A DNA stretch of 24,000 nt from Siphonobacter curvatus (GCF_002943425.1 NZ_PTRA01000002.1:100090-124089), one strand, 5' to 3'; positions 3,790 to 9,863 are shown, counted from the first letter of the stretch. The notes: generated by a model not told the origin, from the letters alone. Program-made: numbers and translations.

Positions 3790-4491
3790 TTAAACGCTTA
3801 GCTCCGGACTAGGAATAAAGTTTAGGAAAGCATTATGTGTAAGTTGATACTTATTGGAATTTACCTGGTACAGATAAGCTCCTCTGCGGGAATATCCCTT
3901 CTGTTTTTCATCTAATTTAGTTAATAGGCTGGTTGATAGTATTTTACGACTGAAGTTACGTTTATCAAATTCAGTATTATAGATCGCTTCGTATAGCTTT
4001 TGTAACTGAGGAATTGTAAATTTCTCGGGTAATAATTCAAAACCAATGGGGTGCTGAGCGGCCTTGTAGCGAAGCCGCTTAAGGGCTAAGTCTACCATGT
4101 CTCCATGGTCGAAGAGTAGGGGTGGTAGGTCGTAGATAGAAAACCAGCGAGCTTGAAACGTATCGGATAAGGTGGCCTCGTAATCATCAATTTTAATTAA
4201 AGAAAAGTAAGCAACGGACACCGTACGTGTGATAGGATCGCGATTGGGGTTACCAAAGGCATACAGTTGCTCCAGATATACATTTGTCAGGCCCGTCAGA
4301 TCAAAAAGAATACGGCTTGCGGCATCCTCCAGGCTTTCATTCGGTTGCAGCCATCCCCCCATCAATGACCAAGTTTCGGCCTCGATCCCTCGCTTAACGA
4401 GTAATACTTTTAGGCCTTCGCCATCAAAGCCGAAAATAATGGAATCTAAAGCCAGTAAATAAGGGTGCTGTTGTTGGTATTGATCTAACAT
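3790..4491 (-). CDS. NrtR-like transcriptional regulator (degenerate Nudix domain plus C-terminal winged helix)
   Basis: 233 aa. The Nudix-box region reads GWLQPNESLEDAASRILFDLTGL. The G-x5-E and terminal xGU positions are kept, but REUxEE is replaced by RILFDL, so the catalytic glutamates are lost. The C-terminal part (FTIPQLQKLYEAIYNTEFDKRNFSRKI) matches the DNA-binding tail of NrtR/AraR-type regulators, which are commonly found next to glycan-utilisation genes in Bacteroidota. Confidence 0.75.
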   Translation of the reverse strand: MLDQYQQQHPYLLALDSIIFGFDGEGLKVLLVKRGIEAETWSLMGGWLQPNESLEDAASRILFDLTGLTNVYLEQLYAFGNPNRDPITRTVSVAYFSLIKIDDYEATLSDTFQARWFSIYDLPPLLFDHGDMVDLALKRLRYKAAQHPIGFELLPEKFTIPQLQKLYEAIYNTEFDKRNFSRKILSTSLLTKLDEKQKGYSRRGAYLYQVNSNKYQLTHNAFLNFIPSPELSV

Positions 4492-4637
4492 GAACGCTCA
4501 CTCAGGAATGGACCACGCTTTAAAAATGTATTTTCTCCCAAGATAAAGCGAAAATGTTAACTTTTTGTTACAAGTTCAAGATAGACTTTCAAGCCGGGTT
4601 TATGGTTATACATTCCCCCGAATCATAGCAGTCCATT

Positions 4638-5690
4638 TTAGCCGGAAGGCTGCTCGATTATCAGAGGTGAACTGTCCTCTTGGTAATGTTCTAGGACTGC
4701 CCGAGCGTTCTTCATCATTCGATCCCTGAGCATGCGGGGCCGTAGTACCTTTATCTTCCCGCCAAAGCCAAGGAATTCCCGTTCCAGTTCAAAGTTGACA
4801 ATAACCCGGATGCGAAATACTGAACCCAATGAATCTTTGGAGAGCAACTCCTGCGACGCATGCAGGGGTTTCGTAACCACATAGGGGGCATTGGAGGCAG
4901 CAACCCAGAAAACCACTTCACAGTTTTTCTGACCAGGGGTCTTGGTTACGCCAATTACATCGGAATAAAAGGTTTGTAAATCCAGGATCTCGTTGGGGCG
5001 ATAGGCTTCATTCAAATCTTCCTGCAAGGCATGAATCCGATCTAAGGCTAACGTGAGAATAGGCTTACGCTTCTGATGCGATTGCCCGAGTATAAACCAG
5101 CGGTTGCGATACTCTTTTAACAGATACGGACTAAAACAGAACGTAGCCGACTGCCGGGCCCGGAAGGATTGGTACGTCATACAAAGCGTTGTTTTCGAAA
5201 CAATGGCCTTCCGAATGGTTTCGATGTAATTCAATCCCAGTAAATGCTCATTCTTTTCAAAATCCACTACTGGTAAACTGCTCGTTTGCTGGGTGTAAAT
5301 CTTGTCCTGCAGTTTACTAACCATTTCCCGCAAGTCCGCAAAGTGGTTCAGTCCTTTGAATTGTTGTAATAAACCCGCCACTTCCCCCAGGAGTTGCATA
5401 TCCTGAGCATTCAAAGGAATGTTGGTGATGCTGAAATGCTTATCGGCGTAGGTATAATACTTGCGGTCCACTACGATAATGGGAGCTTCATAGCCCAGTT
5501 TCGAACTTCGCATCATCTCCAGATCGGACTGAACGGTTCGACGGCTTACCCCCTTTTCAAGGCCCTGATACTCGTACAGGGCTTGTGAACAGGCTTCCAT
5601 CAAATCCTCCAGAGTCCACGTGCGGTATCGATTCTGCAGACATTGATCAATGGTTCGGTAGCGAATGAGGGCGTTGCGATTGAGCGGCAT
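4638..5690 (-). CDS. WYL domain-containing transcriptional regulator (N-terminal HTH)
   Basis: 350 aa. The N-terminus MPLNRNALIRYRTIDQCLQNRYRTWTLEDLMEAC...GVSRRTVQSDLEMMR is the HTH module typical of Bacteroidota WYL regulators. The central region (FSPYLLKEYRNRWFILG) fits the WYL core. It is transcribed divergently from the Ro60 gene. Confidence 0.8.
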   Translation of the reverse strand: MPLNRNALIRYRTIDQCLQNRYRTWTLEDLMEACSQALYEYQGLEKGVSRRTVQSDLEMMRSSKLGYEAPIIVVDRKYYTYADKHFSITNIPLNAQDMQLLGEVAGLLQQFKGLNHFADLREMVSKLQDKIYTQQTSSLPVVDFEKNEHLLGLNYIETIRKAIVSKTTLCMTYQSFRARQSATFCFSPYLLKEYRNRWFILGQSHQKRKPILTLALDRIHALQEDLNEAYRPNEILDLQTFYSDVIGVTKTPGQKNCEVVFWVAASNAPYVVTKPLHASQELLSKDSLGSVFRIRVIVNFELEREFLGFGGKIKVLRPRMLRDRMMKNARAVLEHYQEDSSPLIIEQPSG

Positions 5691-5723
5691 GAGAAAAAAA
5701 TTTCAGAAAATTAGAAATTATTT

Positions 5724-5752
5724 TCTACTACGCACAAAGACTGCGTAGTAGA
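5724..5752. promoter_or_regulatory. Perfect 11-bp inverted repeat in the divergent WYL/rsr promoter region (candidate operator or 5'-UTR hairpin)
   Basis: TCTACTACGCA (5724-5734), a 7-nt spacer CAAAGAC, then TGCGTAGTAGA (5742-5752), the exact reverse complement. It lies 34 nt from the WYL start and 40 nt upstream of the rsr ATG. Confidence 0.5.
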
Positions 5753-5791
5753 CTTAAACCTTTGTATCGTCAACGGAAAACAAAGACAGTT

Positions 5792-7354
5792 ATGAAATTC
5801 AATACAACGCCTCAACAAAGTCAGCCGATCCTGAACCATGAAGGAGCGAAAGCCTACCGCATGAATCCAGCTCTGGAGTTGTATTCAACCGTAGTAACCT
5901 GGTCTTTGAATGATACCTTTTACGAGCCCAATGATGAGCGACTCATCCGGATACGCAATCTGATTGCTCAGAATGATCCGGGTTTTGTAGCAAAACTGGC
6001 CATTTACGCCCGGCATGAGATGTATCTGCGTTCGGCTCCTCTGGTACTACTGGCAGAATTGGCCCGTATTCACTCCGGGGATGACCTCGTCGCCCGAATG
6101 ACGGAGCGGGTCATTGCCCGTGCCGATGAAATTACGGAGCTGCTGGCCTGCTATCAGGCTCTAAACGAACGAACCGGTTTGAAAAAACTCAATCGGTTAT
6201 CTAAGCAACTGCAAAAAGGGCTGGCTTCGGCATTTAACCAATTTGATGCGTATCAATTTGCTAAATACAATCGAAATACGGCTATCAAACTGCGGGATGC
6301 CTTGTTTTTAGTTCATCCCAAAGCTAAAAATCTAGCTCAACAGGAAATTTTCAATCAGATTGTAACCAACACATTACCTGTACCCTATACCTGGGAAACC
6401 GAATTGTCAGCGTTGGGGCAGCAAAAGTTTAAATTAGCCACAGAAAAAGAGGCTGCCTTTCAGCAAAAGTGGGAAGAACTGATCGATAGTAACAAACTGG
6501 GGTACATGGCTTTGCTGCGAAACCTGCGAAATGTGTTCGAAGCCGGGGTCTCGTATGCACATCTGAAAAAAGCCGTCAATACTTTAGCCTCGCCTGAACA
6601 GGTCGCCCGGTCGAAGCAGTTTCCCTTCCGCTATTTAGCCGCTTATCGTGAGTTACAGGGAACGGAAATGAAACGTCCTAAGCAGGAAGGCTGGATTGGA
6701 AAAGTTTTCAGTGGTCAAGGGTACGTAGGAGAGGTTTTGGACGGATTGGAAAAGGCCGTAGTTCAAAGTGCCCGTCGGATTCAGGGTTTCGATGAACATA
6801 CCCGCGTACTGTTAGCCTGCGACGTATCGGGCTCGATGCAGAAGCCTGTTTCACCGCAGTCCAGTATCTTACTTTACGATATTGGTTTGATGCTAGCTAT
6901 GCTGTTACAATCCCGTTGCAGGAATGTACAGGTTGGAATGTTCGGCGATAGCTGGAAGCGAATTCAGGTTCCTAAAAATCGAATCCTCGCCAATGTGCAT
7001 GAATTCTATAAACGAGAGGGAGAGGTAGGCTATGCTACTAATGGTTATCTAGTATTAAAAGAACTGATAGACCGCCGCCAGAAAATGGATAAAATCATGT
7101 TTTTCACGGATTTGCAGCTCTGGAACAGCGGCTCAGGGAGCGATCAGCTAAGTAAGCTGTGGGGGAAGTATAAACAGGAGATTCACCCTTCAGCCCGTCT
7201 GTATTTGTTTGACTTAAGTGGTTACGGCAAAACGCCCCTACAAGTCCTCCGGAATGATGTATACCTGATTGCGGGCTGGAGTGATAAAATCTTCGGGGTA
7301 CTGGAAGCCCTTGAAAAGGGTGAGTCAATTCTGGAAATGATTATGAATTATTGA
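5792..7354 (+). CDS. rsr: Ro60 ortholog (Rsr): TROVE domain plus C-terminal vWA domain
   Basis: The N-terminus NHEGAKAYRMNPALELYSTVVTWSLNDTFYEPNDERL...YARHEMYLRSAP is a TROVE signature. The C-terminal LLACDVSGSM is a vWA MIDAS DxSxS motif. The start is placed at ATG 5792 (MKFNTTPQQ) rather than the TTG at 5762 given by the ORF track. Confidence 0.9.
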   Translation: MKFNTTPQQSQPILNHEGAKAYRMNPALELYSTVVTWSLNDTFYEPNDERLIRIRNLIAQNDPGFVAKLAIYARHEMYLRSAPLVLLAELARIHSGDDLVARMTERVIARADEITELLACYQALNERTGLKKLNRLSKQLQKGLASAFNQFDAYQFAKYNRNTAIKLRDALFLVHPKAKNLAQQEIFNQIVTNTLPVPYTWETELSALGQQKFKLATEKEAAFQQKWEELIDSNKLGYMALLRNLRNVFEAGVSYAHLKKAVNTLASPEQVARSKQFPFRYLAAYRELQGTEMKRPKQEGWIGKVFSGQGYVGEVLDGLEKAVVQSARRIQGFDEHTRVLLACDVSGSMQKPVSPQSSILLYDIGLMLAMLLQSRCRNVQVGMFGDSWKRIQVPKNRILANVHEFYKREGEVGYATNGYLVLKELIDRRQKMDKIMFFTDLQLWNSGSGSDQLSKLWGKYKQEIHPSARLYLFDLSGYGKTPLQVLRNDVYLIAGWSDKIFGVLEALEKGESILEMIMNY

Positions 7355-7434
7355 TTTTAATAACGCTTAACGGTAAGGTTTTCACACCTAACTGTGCTTA
7401 GTACGGTACGGGCTAAGTTTTAGAAGCCCAGCCC

Positions 7435-7556
7435 AAAGGATGCCGTAGCATCGGGATACTTCGCAGCATGTAGGGGGGGGCATTATGACTTCGGTCAGGA
7501 TGGAGGTTCGAGTCCTCTTTGCGATACCCCGCTCCCGATTCGCCCGTCGCTCCTTT
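7435..7556 (+). ncRNA. Y-RNA-like module 1: tRNA-like cloverleaf with a UUCG-capped stub replacing the anticodon arm
   Basis: Leader box AAGGATGCCGTAG lies at 7436-7448. The T-arm is GGAGG-TTCGAGT-CCTCT (7502-7518). The stub is TGAC-TTCG-GTCA (7486-7497). The D-like arm is ATG-loop(TAGGGGGGGG)-CAT (7468-7483). An acceptor-like stem pairs 7461-7466 with 7519-7524. An outer stem pairs ATCGGGA (7450-7456) with TCCCGAT (7533-7539). A closing stem pairs AAAGGA (7435-7440) with TCCTTT (7551-7556). Confidence 0.7.
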
Positions 7557-7609
7557 CAATATCGTTATTGAACTTGAAATCCGTTCGTTACTTTTCTAAA
7601 TGCTTTTAT

Positions 7610-8368
7610 ATGAAAGATAGAATCGCTAGCCTTTTTATGGACAAAAGCGAAATTCCGCTTTTTTACATTGAAAGTGGGAGTCGGCTTTGGGGGATTGCCA
7701 GTCCCGATAGTGACTTTGATGTGCGAGGTTTTCACCTTCCGGCCAAAACAAATTACTTCGATTTTAAGAAACAGCGGGATGTATGGGAGGTAATGGATGG
7801 AGAACTGGATTTTGTATCATACGATCTGGATAAGATGTTTGGATTGTTACAAAAAAGTAACCCTACAGTTTTTGAGTGGGTGCGAGCCGATCTGATGTAT
7901 TGGAATGAACTACCTGATTGGGATACATTTCGTAGTGAAGTTAGCGAAAATATCAATTTTAAAGCTCTTTACTATCATTACCACTCGTTGGCTAAGAGTC
8001 ACTTTTACAAGCTGGAAAGCGATCAGAAGTTTACGTATAAAGTAGCGTTTTACTGCATGCGGGGTCTTCTGTCCGCGGAATTAGCCAGCCGGCAAGTAGT
8101 GCCAGAGCTTTTGATCGACGATCTCTTCAAGCAGTTTAATACTGAATCTGAGGTGATCAAACTTGCAAAGGCTAGTCTGGAAAGAAAAAGACAGCAAACG
8201 GAAAAAGAAGAAATAAAGGAAGAAGATAAACAAAAGATCATACAAGGCATTAAAGCTTATTTATATCGTTTTGAGAGCATTACGCCAGGAGGTAGTTCAA
8301 CTCAGGCAAAATTGGATAGAGTTCTAACGAATTATAGTGTTCAAATAAAATCCATGTTTTATGCCTGA
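7610..8368 (+). CDS. RlaP-type (YcgL-like, pol-beta superfamily) nucleotidyltransferase associated with RNA-repair loci
   Basis: The motif ESGSRLWGIASPDSDFDVRGFH matches the nucleotidyltransferase signature G-S-x9-13-D-x-D. The start is placed at ATG 7610 (MKDRIASLF), because the listed TTG at 7568 adds 14 poorly coding residues. The gene lies between tRNA-like RNA modules and downstream of rsr. Confidence 0.75.
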   Translation: MKDRIASLFMDKSEIPLFYIESGSRLWGIASPDSDFDVRGFHLPAKTNYFDFKKQRDVWEVMDGELDFVSYDLDKMFGLLQKSNPTVFEWVRADLMYWNELPDWDTFRSEVSENINFKALYYHYHSLAKSHFYKLESDQKFTYKVAFYCMRGLLSAELASRQVVPELLIDDLFKQFNTESEVIKLAKASLERKRQQTEKEEIKEEDKQKIIQGIKAYLYRFESITPGGSSTQAKLDRVLTNYSVQIKSMFYA

Positions 8369-8444
8369 ATGGATACCGGCTGGTATTAAAAATGCAGCTT
8401 TACAAAGCCGAAGGTGTTACTGACTTGGTAGCAAAAACTAGTTT

Positions 8445-8568
8445 TAAGGATGTCGTAGAAACGGGTTACTTCGTATGGAATCTACTGAGAGTGAGCCTAT
8501 TGACCAGGTCAGTAGGTAGGTTCGAATCCTCTGAAAGGTCACCCACCCGAATTGCTGGTTACTCCTGA
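8445..8568 (+). ncRNA. Y-RNA-like module 2 (degenerate paralog of module 1)
   Basis: Leader box AAGGATGTCGTAG lies at 8446-8458. CTTCG at 8469-8473 is at the same offset as in module 1. The T-arm-like element is GTAGG-TTCGAAT-CCTCT (8516-8532), with one U-C mismatch. A hairpin TGAC-CAG-GTCA lies at 8501-8511. The stem CGGGT (8462-8466) / ACCCG (8545-8549) covaries with the module 1 stem. AGGA (8447-8450) pairs with TCCT (8563-8566). Confidence 0.5.
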
Positions 8569-8598
8569 ATCATTACAACCCACCCGTTAACAAGAAAA

Positions 8599-8717
8599 GA
8601 AGGTGTCGTATCGCGGCGTTGCTTCGTGTCGCCGGTTCGAATCCGGCTCTGGTCAGCCAGGTAGCTCAGTAGGTAGAGCAGATTTTTGCCCCGAGCTTAT
8701 TACCCTTCTCCACCTTT
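8599..8717 (+). ncRNA. yrlA: YrlA-like Y RNA (module 3): circularly permuted tRNA mimic
   Basis: Leader box AAGGTGTCGTA lies at 8600-8610. The T-arm GCCGG-TTCGAAT-CCGGC (8631-8647) is perfect. It is followed by a closed acceptor-like hairpin TCTGG-TCAG-CCAGG (8648-8661), then TA, then a canonical D-arm GCTC-AGTAGGTA-GAGC (8664-8679). A stem pairs 8611-8618 with 8687-8694. A closing stem pairs AAGGTG (8600-8605) with CACCTT (8711-8716). Confidence 0.8.
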
Positions 8718-8838
8718 AAAGGTGCCGTAAAACAGTGATCCTTCGGTTAGAACATCCGTGCCGATGGGCCGGAAGGTCGCAGGTTCGAGCCCTGCCTTAT
8801 AGTTCAGTTAATAAAGCACTGTTTGCCTGTTGCCCTTT
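8718..8838 (+). ncRNA. Y-RNA-like module 4 (T-arm intact, D-arm decayed)
   Basis: Leader box AAGGTGCCGTA lies at 8719-8729. A variable-loop-like AGGTC (8774-8778) precedes a perfect T-arm GCAGG-TTCGAGC-CCTGC (8779-8795). The downstream TAGTTCAGTTAATAAAGCA (8800-8818) matches the module 3 D-arm segment at 14 of 19 positions, with the loop GG changed to AA. An 8-bp stem pairs AAACAGTG (8730-8737) with CACTGTTT (8817-8824). AAAGG (8718-8722) pairs with CCTTT (8834-8838), followed by a U-rich ATTATTTG. Confidence 0.55.
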
Positions 8839-9182
8839 ATTATTTGTGTAGCATTGGATTAATACGCTAATCTATACTTATTTTAAACGCTTAAACTTAT
8901 AATACAAAACTTGAATGACTTTAATATTTATAATCAACGAATTGTTAATTCTTCTCTAAGTATACATTAGGTAGTAATATGTAAGATTGTATTTAGTAAA
9001 TATCCTTATTAAATAGTTGCTTATCAAGTGGTGTGATTTGCAGTAAATTAAACGATTTAAACTTTAAATATTAATTAAGTAATAAAATAATTTAATCCAT
9101 AAGTATTATTTAATTTACTCAGGTATTAACCTCATATTTTGATAGAAGATTTTAAATAAAAAGTGTTTTCATTAATCATTTT

Positions 9183-9219
9183 AAAGAGTTGCCTGTTAGT
9201 TTACAGGCAACTCTTTTTT
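9183..9219 (+). terminator. Strong rho-independent terminator inside the AT-rich island
   Basis: AAAGAGTTGCCTGT (9183-9196) and ACAGGCAACTCTTT (9203-9216) form a 14-bp perfect stem with a 6-nt loop. The T-run spans 9214-9219. The better T-tract is on the plus strand. Confidence 0.75.
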
Positions 9220-9423
9220 AACTACACTTAATAAATGTAGTTAAGAATAATATTCCTCTAAAATAATTGACCTAACAAATGATCAAGATGCTTAAGTAAG
9301 GCTCAATGAGTAAGAAATGTACGATGTAGTAGCTAGCTCGATGCCCATAGCCTTCATCAAAATATGCTCAGAATTCATCTAATAACGTGATGTAGAATTG
9401 TGTTGTAGTAATTATTGATTTAT

Positions 9424-9445
9424 TTTGTAGTATTAATACTACAAA
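9424..9445. repeat. 22-bp perfect palindrome TTTGTAGTATTAATACTACAAA
   Basis: Read directly: 9424-9434 is the exact reverse complement of 9435-9445. It contains the TGTAGT motif on both strands. Confidence 0.9.
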
Positions 9446-9863
9446 TACATTTTGTACTTAAGAAGTAATGCTCATTTGATGATATTAAGCAATTAATATA
9501 TGTCATTAAATATCATAATTACTACTATAAAATGCGTAAGATATTTAGTATTTGTTTCAGTGTATCTTTTTTTTATAGTAAAGCTAGTTCTTATATACGT
9601 ATAAGTTTGTACAATAATTACTCAAGAAATTGTAGTTTTGTTAGTTTGAAAAAATATCAAAGTTTAACATTTAATAGTACTTAGCTATCTATTATGTGAT
9701 TAGCTGAGCTAAAATTTCCGAACTAGGTTTTGTCAGAATTCGAGGATCTGTTTTCGAATAATTGAATCAAAATGTATAGGAAATTACGATCCTTCCTATC
9801 AGCTGATACATGATTTAGCAATAATGGCAACTCTAGTTATCCTATTAGTCCTGATTAAATACC

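Follow-up and report, generated by a model that had tools for sequence, protein, structure and literature searches.

A ribonucleoprotein (RNP) locus consisting of a Ro60 gene, four Y-RNA-like modules, an RlaP-family nucleotidyltransferase gene, and a divergent WYL regulator gene was analyzed in a 24,000-nucleotide stretch of the Siphonobacter curvatus genome (GCF_002943425.1 NZ_PTRA01000002.1:100090-124089), hereafter called the window. The locus probably represents, in Siphonobacter, a Ro60 (Rsr)/Y-RNA RNP operon that is found across the Bacteroidota and belongs to the RNA-repair and quality-control class, and it looks like a reduced variant without a ligase, or one whose ligase is encoded elsewhere. 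Its component parts and this kind of RNA-repair system are known. No description of the Bacteroidota Y-RNA arrays, their CGUA/UACUUCG signature, or the candidate operator was found in the searchable literature, and nothing in that literature characterizes this type of locus, as a preliminary description of the window had also held. The features are listed below by position in the window.

4638-5690, minus strand: WYL-domain transcription regulator, divergent from Ro60 (Pfam WYL, E 1.2e-11; WCX, E 2.9e-11)
5725-5751, no strand assigned: perfect palindrome CTACTACGCA-N7-TGCGTAGTAG, read in the sequence, one copy in the window
5757-5764, plus strand: AACCTTTG, candidate Bacteroidota -7 promoter box, 5 nt 3' of the palindrome
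5792-7354, plus strand: Ro60/Rsr orthologue with TROVE ring and vWA domain (Pfam TROVE, E 2.8e-29; vWA_Ro60, E 2.6e-7)
7433-7557, plus strand: Y-RNA-like module m1, type A (model R1, 68.4 bits, E 1.7e-15)
7610-8368, plus strand: RlaP-family Pol-beta nucleotidyltransferase, 252 amino acids (Pfam PF10127, E 2.1e-43)
8443-8569, plus strand: Y-RNA-like module m2, type A paralogue of m1 (R1, 62.7 bits, E 6e-14)
8596-8710, plus strand: Y-RNA-like module m3, the sole YrlA-like one (R1, 70.5 bits)
8715-8840, plus strand: Y-RNA-like module m4 (R1, 81.7 bits, E 3.5e-19; constrained fold)

Domains of the window open reading frames (ORFs) of at least 100 amino acids were identified with Pfam profiles. Related loci were collected by scanning genome contigs with the window Ro60 protein, which gave 52 Bacteroidota loci, among them loci of Pedobacter, Mucilaginibacter, Chryseobacterium, Pontibacter, Chitinophaga, Hymenobacter, Fibrella, Haliscomenobacter, and Bacteroidales metagenome-assembled genomes. 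Their neighbor genes were assigned by ORF clustering, and counts of ligases and RlaPs refer to the 6 kb around them. Related loci are labeled with L-numbers (L001, L058, and so on), and their coordinates are locus-internal. The closest to the window is that of Siphonobacter sp. BAB-5405 (L001), with a 96% identical Ro60 and 89% DNA identity over 7 kb.

A repeat search found four copies of TGYCGTA...CTTCG in the window, with a GGTTCGAnnCC T-loop-like sequence in the same modules. A covariance model, R1, was built from a plain MAFFT alignment (A1) of 28 modules, the window's four included, that was not fitted to structure. Over the 24-kb window R1 gave exactly four matches, all on the Ro60 strand. 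The gene order is Ro60, m1, RlaP, m2, m3, m4, with one module before RlaP and three after it, as the preliminary description had placed them. The modules lie 79-1486 nt 3' of the Ro60 stop on the plus strand, within the 4 kb on the same strand that the criteria of Chen et al. 2014 take as Y-RNA proximity, and with lengths of 115-127 nt and an end-pairing stem they fall in the 80-130 nt class of Y RNAs.

Each module combines a conserved core with a head of its own. In m1, the closing stem and CGUA loop are followed by stem 2 (AUCGGGA/UCCCGAU), a hairpin, and a T-arm (T-loop 7505-7515), and m2 has an 8-bp hairpin ahead of its T-arm (T-loop 8519-8529). The first modules of L002-L006 and L045 are orthologous to m1. 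By alignment, both m1 and m2 are orthologous to the first (type A) module of Sphingobacteriales loci. A recent duplication of the two through the RlaP insertion was considered, but outside the conserved core they differ from each other at many positions, and their flanks are unmatched. Module m3 carries a T-arm (8634-8644), an intervening stem-loop, and then a D-arm (GUAGCUCAGUAGGUAGAGC). Module m4 has a stem 2 of AAACAGUG/CACUGUUU, a T-arm (8782-8792), and a U-rich tail, UUUAUUAUUUGUGU; this stem and tail would act as a terminator and probably mark the end of the transcription unit. The tRNA-like character ascribed earlier to the modules holds for the T-arm, GGUUCGAnnCC, which is present in all four, and only in part for the D-arm, which is canonical in m3 only, degenerate by eye in m4, and absent from m1 and m2. 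ARAGORN called no tRNAs in the window, so the modules are not tRNA genes.

The common structure was obtained by comparing the window modules with those of close relatives. On the 5' side, stem 1, AAGG(A) with a bulged U and G-Y, leads into the internal loop CGUA and the 5' strand of stem 2, about 8 nt of free sequence. This strand is followed by WUACUUCG, the variable head, and the 3' strand of stem 2. The 3' side then runs UUG, 4-6 nt, U-Y, and the 3' strand of stem 1, R-C-(Y)CCUU, and the Y and R positions of stem 1 covary (GC with GC, GU with AC). Standard pairs made up 93.9% of the cells in A1; column shuffles gave 73%, and sliding the partners gave 43-53%. Of the 21 base pairs, 17 had changes on both sides. 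Against 500 shuffles, the observed value was reached by none on four of five measures and by two on the fifth. In stems 1 and 2, pairing extended to 91-98% of cells, and compensatory changes affected 13 of 16 pairs in A1 and 15 of 16 in a 150-module alignment; the T-arm also covaried in A1. The larger alignment holds the best 150 of the 273 modules described below and was aligned to R1, so it leans toward the R1 structure; 97% of its cells pair and 20 of its 21 pairs show compensatory changes. The secondary structure of the modules is shown by covariation, and the four are real, not chance repeats. All 150 modules share the unpaired bases U9, G13, A16, U27, and C32, and CGUA is kept in 147. 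This invariance of unpaired bases suggests that the internal loop is a protein-binding site, and the invariant G-Y-CGUA occupies the position of the Ro60 site of Y RNAs, one base off CGAA.

At E ≤0.01, R1 identified 273 modules in the window and the 52 related loci. All 273 were on the Ro60 strand and clustered beside Ro60. The seeds of R1 had been chosen with a motif pattern, and 46 of the 52 loci gave no seeds, yet these too yielded same-strand, Ro60-adjacent matches. Every related locus has at least one module, with a median of 5 and a maximum of 9, so the window's four are no expansion to four paralogs, as had been supposed, but an ordinary number for the phylum, slightly below the median. 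The expectation that the modules would be conserved and covary in related genomes was upheld by these copies and by the two-sided changes described above. Simple patterns over the 273 modules found a T-loop in 173, a D-arm in 78, both in 74, and neither in 96.

T-loop sequences and the degenerate D-arm of m4 could also be read as traces of decaying tRNA genes or functionless repeat debris, and ARAGORN calls overlap R1 modules in several relatives. We consider this reading very improbable: the closing stems, which tRNAs do not have, covary strongly; the non-tRNA motifs UG-Y-CGUA and UACUUCG are invariant in 150 copies from several Bacteroidota orders; and all 273 copies keep the strand and position relative to Ro60. 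The overlapping ARAGORN calls are at L009 7649-7724, L030 7930-7997, L038 7661-7742, L039 8256-8324, and L033 8033-8118, and they suggest that annotation pipelines could mislabel such modules.

Existing RNA families largely missed the modules. No Rfam family reached its gathering score in the window. At a relaxed threshold, m3 (8597-8713) matched YrlA (RF02553) at E 1e-7, its 44.6 bits falling short of the gathering score of 69, and m1, m2, and m4 had no match to RF02553 at E ≤10; the Y-RNA assignment thus found an Rfam counterpart in one module, below threshold. The Pedobacter orthologue of m3 also matched YrlA below threshold (E-value mode), and YrlA was not found at its gathering score in any of 11 related loci scanned. 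A possible earlier description of the modules, the Pedobacter motif Pedo-repair (RF01715; Weinberg 2010, PMC2864571), was rejected, with no match at E ≤10 over a Pedobacter WYL-RtcB-Ro60-Y region.

The preliminary description had identified the three proteins as a WYL regulator, a TROVE-vWA Ro60, and an RlaP, and the Pfam profile searches agreed. The Ro60 domains exceeded their cut-offs (TROVE, 103 bits; vWA_Ro60, 31.2 bits), and the translation shows DVSGS in the vWA domain, the DxSxS pattern of a metal ion-dependent adhesion site (MIDAS). The mechanically called ORF begins at TTG 5762. The ATG at 5792 is the likely start, because homologue alignments begin at residue 10-11 of that ORF and because the TTG would overlap the promoter-like box. 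In a sequence search of the PDB, the best solved relative was the Ro60 of Thermus phage phiLo (9KOP/9L5Y; E 1e-28, residues 15-514), an alignment that indicates a full-length match to 9KOP; no Deinococcus or Xenopus Ro60 chain was found at the E 0.01 threshold. Chitinophaga dinghuensis (L032) has a second, apparently split Ro60 (4346-5470, 5554-5879) upstream of its main Ro60, with two Y modules and an operator of its own.

The window also matched the earlier statement that RtcB, RtcA, and a sigma-54 activator are missing, as none was found among its scanned ORFs. Relatives typically begin with a divergent WYL gene and Ro60, followed by Y modules, in some loci tRNAs and a pair of RlaPs, and then RtcB or a T4 Rnl1-like RNA ligase with Pnkp. 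RtcB is present in 17 of the 52 loci, and in three (L012, L029, L049; for example, L029 8048-10104) the Rnl1-like ligase and Pnkp replace it after the Y array. The lack of RtcB, stressed in the preliminary description, does not make the locus a separate system: 20 of 52 relatives carry one of these ligases in the same locus, and about three fifths are, like the window, without one within 6 kb.

The window RlaP scored 149.3 bits against PF10127 (curated cut-off, 23) and had no solved relative in a PDB sequence search. It is 24-25% identical to RtcB-linked Bacteroidota RlaPs and has the signature ESGSRLWG...SPDSDFDVR, compared with the form common to those enzymes, ESGSRxWG...SPDSDxDVR; aligned with them, it keeps the catalytic G-S and D-x-D residues (G23, S24, D33, D35, D37), which do not vary. 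Proteins of its subfamily are abundant in Bacteroidota (about 253 amino acids, 59-65% identity among the best 120 matches listed), and this subfamily stands alone in all eight independent non-Siphonobacter contexts examined, which came from Pedobacter, Saprospiraceae, Algibacter, Nubsella, Paludibacter, another NCBI assembly, and two JGI metagenome contigs. Within approximately 6-7 kb of these eight genes, where the contig permits, there was no Ro60, RtcB, or R1 match, and no RNA ligase was found beside them or within the 24-kb window. The stand-alone genes (L053, L054/L055, L056, L059-L063) lie in variable islands of small unannotated genes, a setting that differs from RNA-ligase operons; their neighbors include integrases, IS110 transposases, ParE and HicA toxins, and AbiJ- and AbiEii-like genes.

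From the arrangement of the window alone, the modules had been proposed as substrates or guides of the nucleotidyltransferase that they flank, for example in 3' tailing or repair, which would make the locus a self-contained, ligase-free system. The RlaP gene does sit between modules, on the same strand and without a palindrome operator of its own, and a Pseudomonas RlaP favors nicked tRNA-like substrates (PMC12776372). RlaPs of another clade recur in 12 of the 52 Ro60 loci, usually as a pair of 255 and 355 amino acids directly ahead of RtcB, so some functional link between RlaP and Ro60 is likely; independent capture of a second RlaP clade by a Ro60 locus fits a shared pathway for the two. Those RlaPs, however, stand beside RtcB, past the array and not among the RNAs, and 40 of the 52 loci lack RlaP within 6 kb. 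Moreover, the window subfamily occurs without Ro60 or a Y module in the eight other contexts, and RlaP within the array is limited, apart from the window, to BAB-5405 and a near-identical run assembly (L058). The best reading of its solitary occurrence elsewhere and its Siphonobacter-only interleaving is a lineage-specific insertion of a stand-alone gene into a pre-existing Y-RNA array, which argues against a dedicated pairing of RNA and enzyme and leaves the substrate or guide proposal unlikely.

The regulator carries both WYL (44.9 bits) and WCX (44 bits) domains and matches Cas-associated WYL models in PADLOC; Pfam gave no N-terminal helix-turn-helix match for residues 1-150. Its sole solved relative in the PDB search was weak (7p5x_AY, "Transcriptional regulator-like protein," E 0.008), which we take to be mycobacterial PafBC, an activator. 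WYL homologues were found by tblastn in 27 of the 52 loci, on the strand opposite to Ro60 and adjoining it in most; ORF clustering placed a WYL regulator in 21. The perfect palindrome lies in the 100-bp spacer between the WYL gene and Ro60. Its core, CTRCGCA-N7-TGCGYAG, occurs 78 times in the window and the 52 loci, compared with 6.4 times in shuffles, and in most loci it stands approximately 40-100 nt ahead of the Ro60 start. In most Ro60-proximal copies CTTTG or a close variant stands about 10-12 nt beyond the core, a spacing that hardly varies. This box resembles the Bacteroidota -7 promoter element, with its consensus TAnnTTTG, and the copy at 5757-5764 may have promoter function. We regard the 5725-5751 palindrome as a likely candidate operator for the WYL protein.

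Several related loci have a second palindrome close to the WYL gene, and palindrome plus CTTTG also stands ahead of RtcB, RlaP, or the Y array (L003 4423, L006 684, L014 1290, L028 8609, L030 1084/2961/5940, L036 2441, L048 10046) or inside the RNA array region (L043 8185/10334). This recurrence at several gene groups suggests one regulon with several transcription units in these relatives. In the window, the single copy of the palindrome points to a single regulated promoter from Ro60 through m4. A sigma-70 promoter and terminator scan of the window gave counts no higher than expected from shuffles, this promoter type being inapplicable to Bacteroidota. The scan also returned a terminator-like hairpin with a T-run at 7392-7423, between the Ro60 stop and m1; L003 and L045 have a stronger GC hairpin just past the Ro60 stop. 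Such a hairpin could act as an attenuator, fixing how much Ro60 mRNA is made relative to the Y RNAs.

For the Ro60/Y-RNA operon that we favor, these parts suggest the following mechanism. The WYL regulator would probably bind the 5725-5751 palindrome and control one transcription unit from Ro60 to m4, and the transcript would be cut into four stable RNAs of approximately 115-127 nt. The operon name rsr-yrlBA-rtcBA in Salmonella implies that RNAs are processed from an operon transcript there (PMC7790460). The closing stem with its invariant loop (U-bulge, G-Y-CGUA, UACUUCG), a structure derived from covariation, may be the Ro60 docking site, and the variable head of each RNA would present a tRNA-type T-arm. 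By analogy with the Deinococcus and Salmonella Y RNAs (PMC4201824, PMC7790460), the heads may tether Ro60 to partner enzymes or mimic tRNAs. RlaP enzymes are predicted to restore lost 3' nucleotides (summarized in PMC7824862), and two Pseudomonas RlaPs add one or two nucleoside monophosphates (NMP) to RNA 3'-OH ends (PMC12776372). The window RlaP, presumably a co-expressed stand-alone nucleotidyltransferase that heals 3' ends and is encoded by a gene that entered the array in the Siphonobacter lineage, could likewise restore 1-2 nt on damaged RNA ends before repair or decay, with the ligase encoded elsewhere in the genome or unneeded.

Several observations weigh against the assignment to the Ro60/Y-RNA operon. 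Single-sequence minimum free energy folding of the modules was no better than that of shuffles (z +1.2 to -0.9). Their loop is CGUA and not the CGAA of phage Ro60 binding, whose bases each contribute 3-4 fold (PMC12135203); Chen 2014 located the motif GNCGAAN0-1G within the 5'/3' stem, at the potential binding site of Rsr (PMC4201824). The window Ro60 scored 27.6 bits against NF041674, the NCBIfam equivalog of characterized bacterial Rsr, far from its cut-off of 900, and by this comparison it is a distant orthologue of that protein. Many palindrome-bearing loci, including ones with Ro60-proximal copies, have no adjacent WYL gene, and the proposed binding of the WYL protein to the palindrome is deduced from their co-occurrence. 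RlaP could also have its own promoter.

Arrays of at least three bona fide tRNA genes, with 3-14 genes among or after the Y modules, were found in 13 of the 52 related loci (for example, L039 8667-10333 and L038 8167-10441); in L010, L017, L022, L028, L031, L033, L034, L038, L039, L043, and L047 they lie between Ro60 and RtcB. Their anticodon set is biased. Phe-GAA recurs in 11 of the 13 loci, Lys-UUU and His-GUG in 10 each, Gln-UUG in 9, Pro-UGG and Arg-ACG in 8 each, and Tyr-GUA and Asn-GUU in 7 each; Gly and Val tRNAs occur in none of the 13, and Ala, Ser, Cys, and Met in at most two. This recurring set overlaps the classic targets of anticodon nucleases.

These interleaved arrays are consistent with a functional refinement of the Ro60/Y-RNA operon, compatible with it, in which an inducible Ro60 regulon would defend against toxins that cleave tRNA or anticodon nucleases triggered by phage. 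The tRNA-like heads would be decoys or sensors, the spare tRNAs would replenish the pool, and cut tRNAs would be healed by RlaP and ligases. YrlA has been raised as a possible competitive inhibitor of anticodon nuclease (Hughes et al. 2020; PMC7790460), and the stand-alone RlaP subfamily adjoins integrase, Abi, and toxin-antitoxin genes. On the other side, the window itself has neither tRNA genes by ARAGORN nor a ligase, about a third of the family's modules fit neither the T-arm nor the D-arm pattern, and PADLOC has no model for Ro60 or RlaP. We know of no experiment that connects Ro60 with phage defense, and we put this refinement forward tentatively. The same caution applies to a wider proposal taken as a whole, that of a Bacteroidota tRNA-damage regulon with one operator, probably governed by WYL proteins. 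In it, Ro60 would be served by 3-9 diversified CGUA-type Y RNAs missed by Rfam at its thresholds, the arrays often being interleaved with spare tRNAs for a recurring set of anticodons, and RtcB, Rnl1-like ligase/Pnkp, and RlaP would plug in as healing modules. The minimal member would be the window, which lacks a ligase and would have captured an RlaP from a defense island, and the heads would be anticodon-nuclease decoys or adaptors.

Among known systems, the Salmonella Typhimurium rsr-yrlBA-rtcBA operon shares with the window a Ro60 gene followed by same-strand Y RNAs with tRNA-like T and D arms in an RNA-repair context (PMC4201824, PMC7790460), and a divergently encoded regulator, which in Salmonella is RtcR with sigma-54. 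The window differs from this operon type in lacking RtcB, RtcA, and RtcR (RtcR-like genes were not looked for in the 52 related loci), and its regulator is a WYL protein with a palindromic candidate operator instead of a CARF/sigma-54 activator. It has four RNAs instead of two and CGUA instead of CGAA at the Ro60 site, and m3 alone resembles YrlA, below the Rfam threshold. The Deinococcus radiodurans Rsr/Yrn1/PNPase complex (RYPER) and the Ro60-Yrl1/Yrl2 system of phage phiLo likewise combine a Ro60 ring with adjacent Y RNAs of stem, internal loop, and stem, and Yrn1 shares the T-arm with the window modules. In the window, by contrast, the RNAs lie downstream and not upstream of Ro60, and the sets are larger.

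RtcB/RlaP/Ro repair systems were reportedly defined by Burroughs & Aravind in 2016 by comparative genomics, which is said to have listed WYL-type regulators too. These (ROT/TROVE) systems contain the same parts, a TROVE protein, a tRNA-like RNA partner, and RlaP (PMC7824862), and relatives of the window locus carry the full set. The window differs in lacking the ligase behind RlaP's name and in having an RlaP of the stand-alone subfamily. The Pseudomonas rtcB-rlaP-rtcA operon also has an RlaP-family enzyme with the same catalytic signature (PMC12776372), but the window RlaP is not flanked by RtcB or RtcA.

The remaining scanned ORFs of the window are ordinary Bacteroidota genes. By Pfam they encode GH67, a glucose/sorbosone dehydrogenase, an NrtR-like Nudix regulator, response regulators, a hybrid histidine kinase, a dehydrogenase, and a TonB-dependent (SusC-like) receptor; two had no Pfam match. 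Between m4 and a LytTR response regulator lies a non-coding 1-kb spacer (8850-9860) of 21-29% GC, next to stretches of mostly 36-50% GC. Its identity to L001 is 79%, compared with 89% for the whole region, and it gave no Rfam match at gathering thresholds.

Work on Ro60 and Y RNAs in bacteria covers very few species (Deinococcus, Salmonella, Mycobacterium smegmatis, and one phage), and what they do outside Deinococcus is still to be established. The window locus and its 52 relatives contain a large, strongly covarying, previously unannotated Y-RNA subfamily of 273 copies, and a covariance model for it would improve annotation across the phylum. They also offer a simple predicted switch, a palindrome beside a promoter-like box with a WYL sensor protein, and loci in which these parts are naturally combined with RtcB, Rnl1-like ligase/Pnkp, RlaP, and tRNA arrays. 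Taken as a set, such features make the role of the Ro60 RNP in RNA damage, and the signal to which the WYL protein responds, testable. The window itself is a natural experiment, a ligase-less operon that appears to have captured a stand-alone RlaP.

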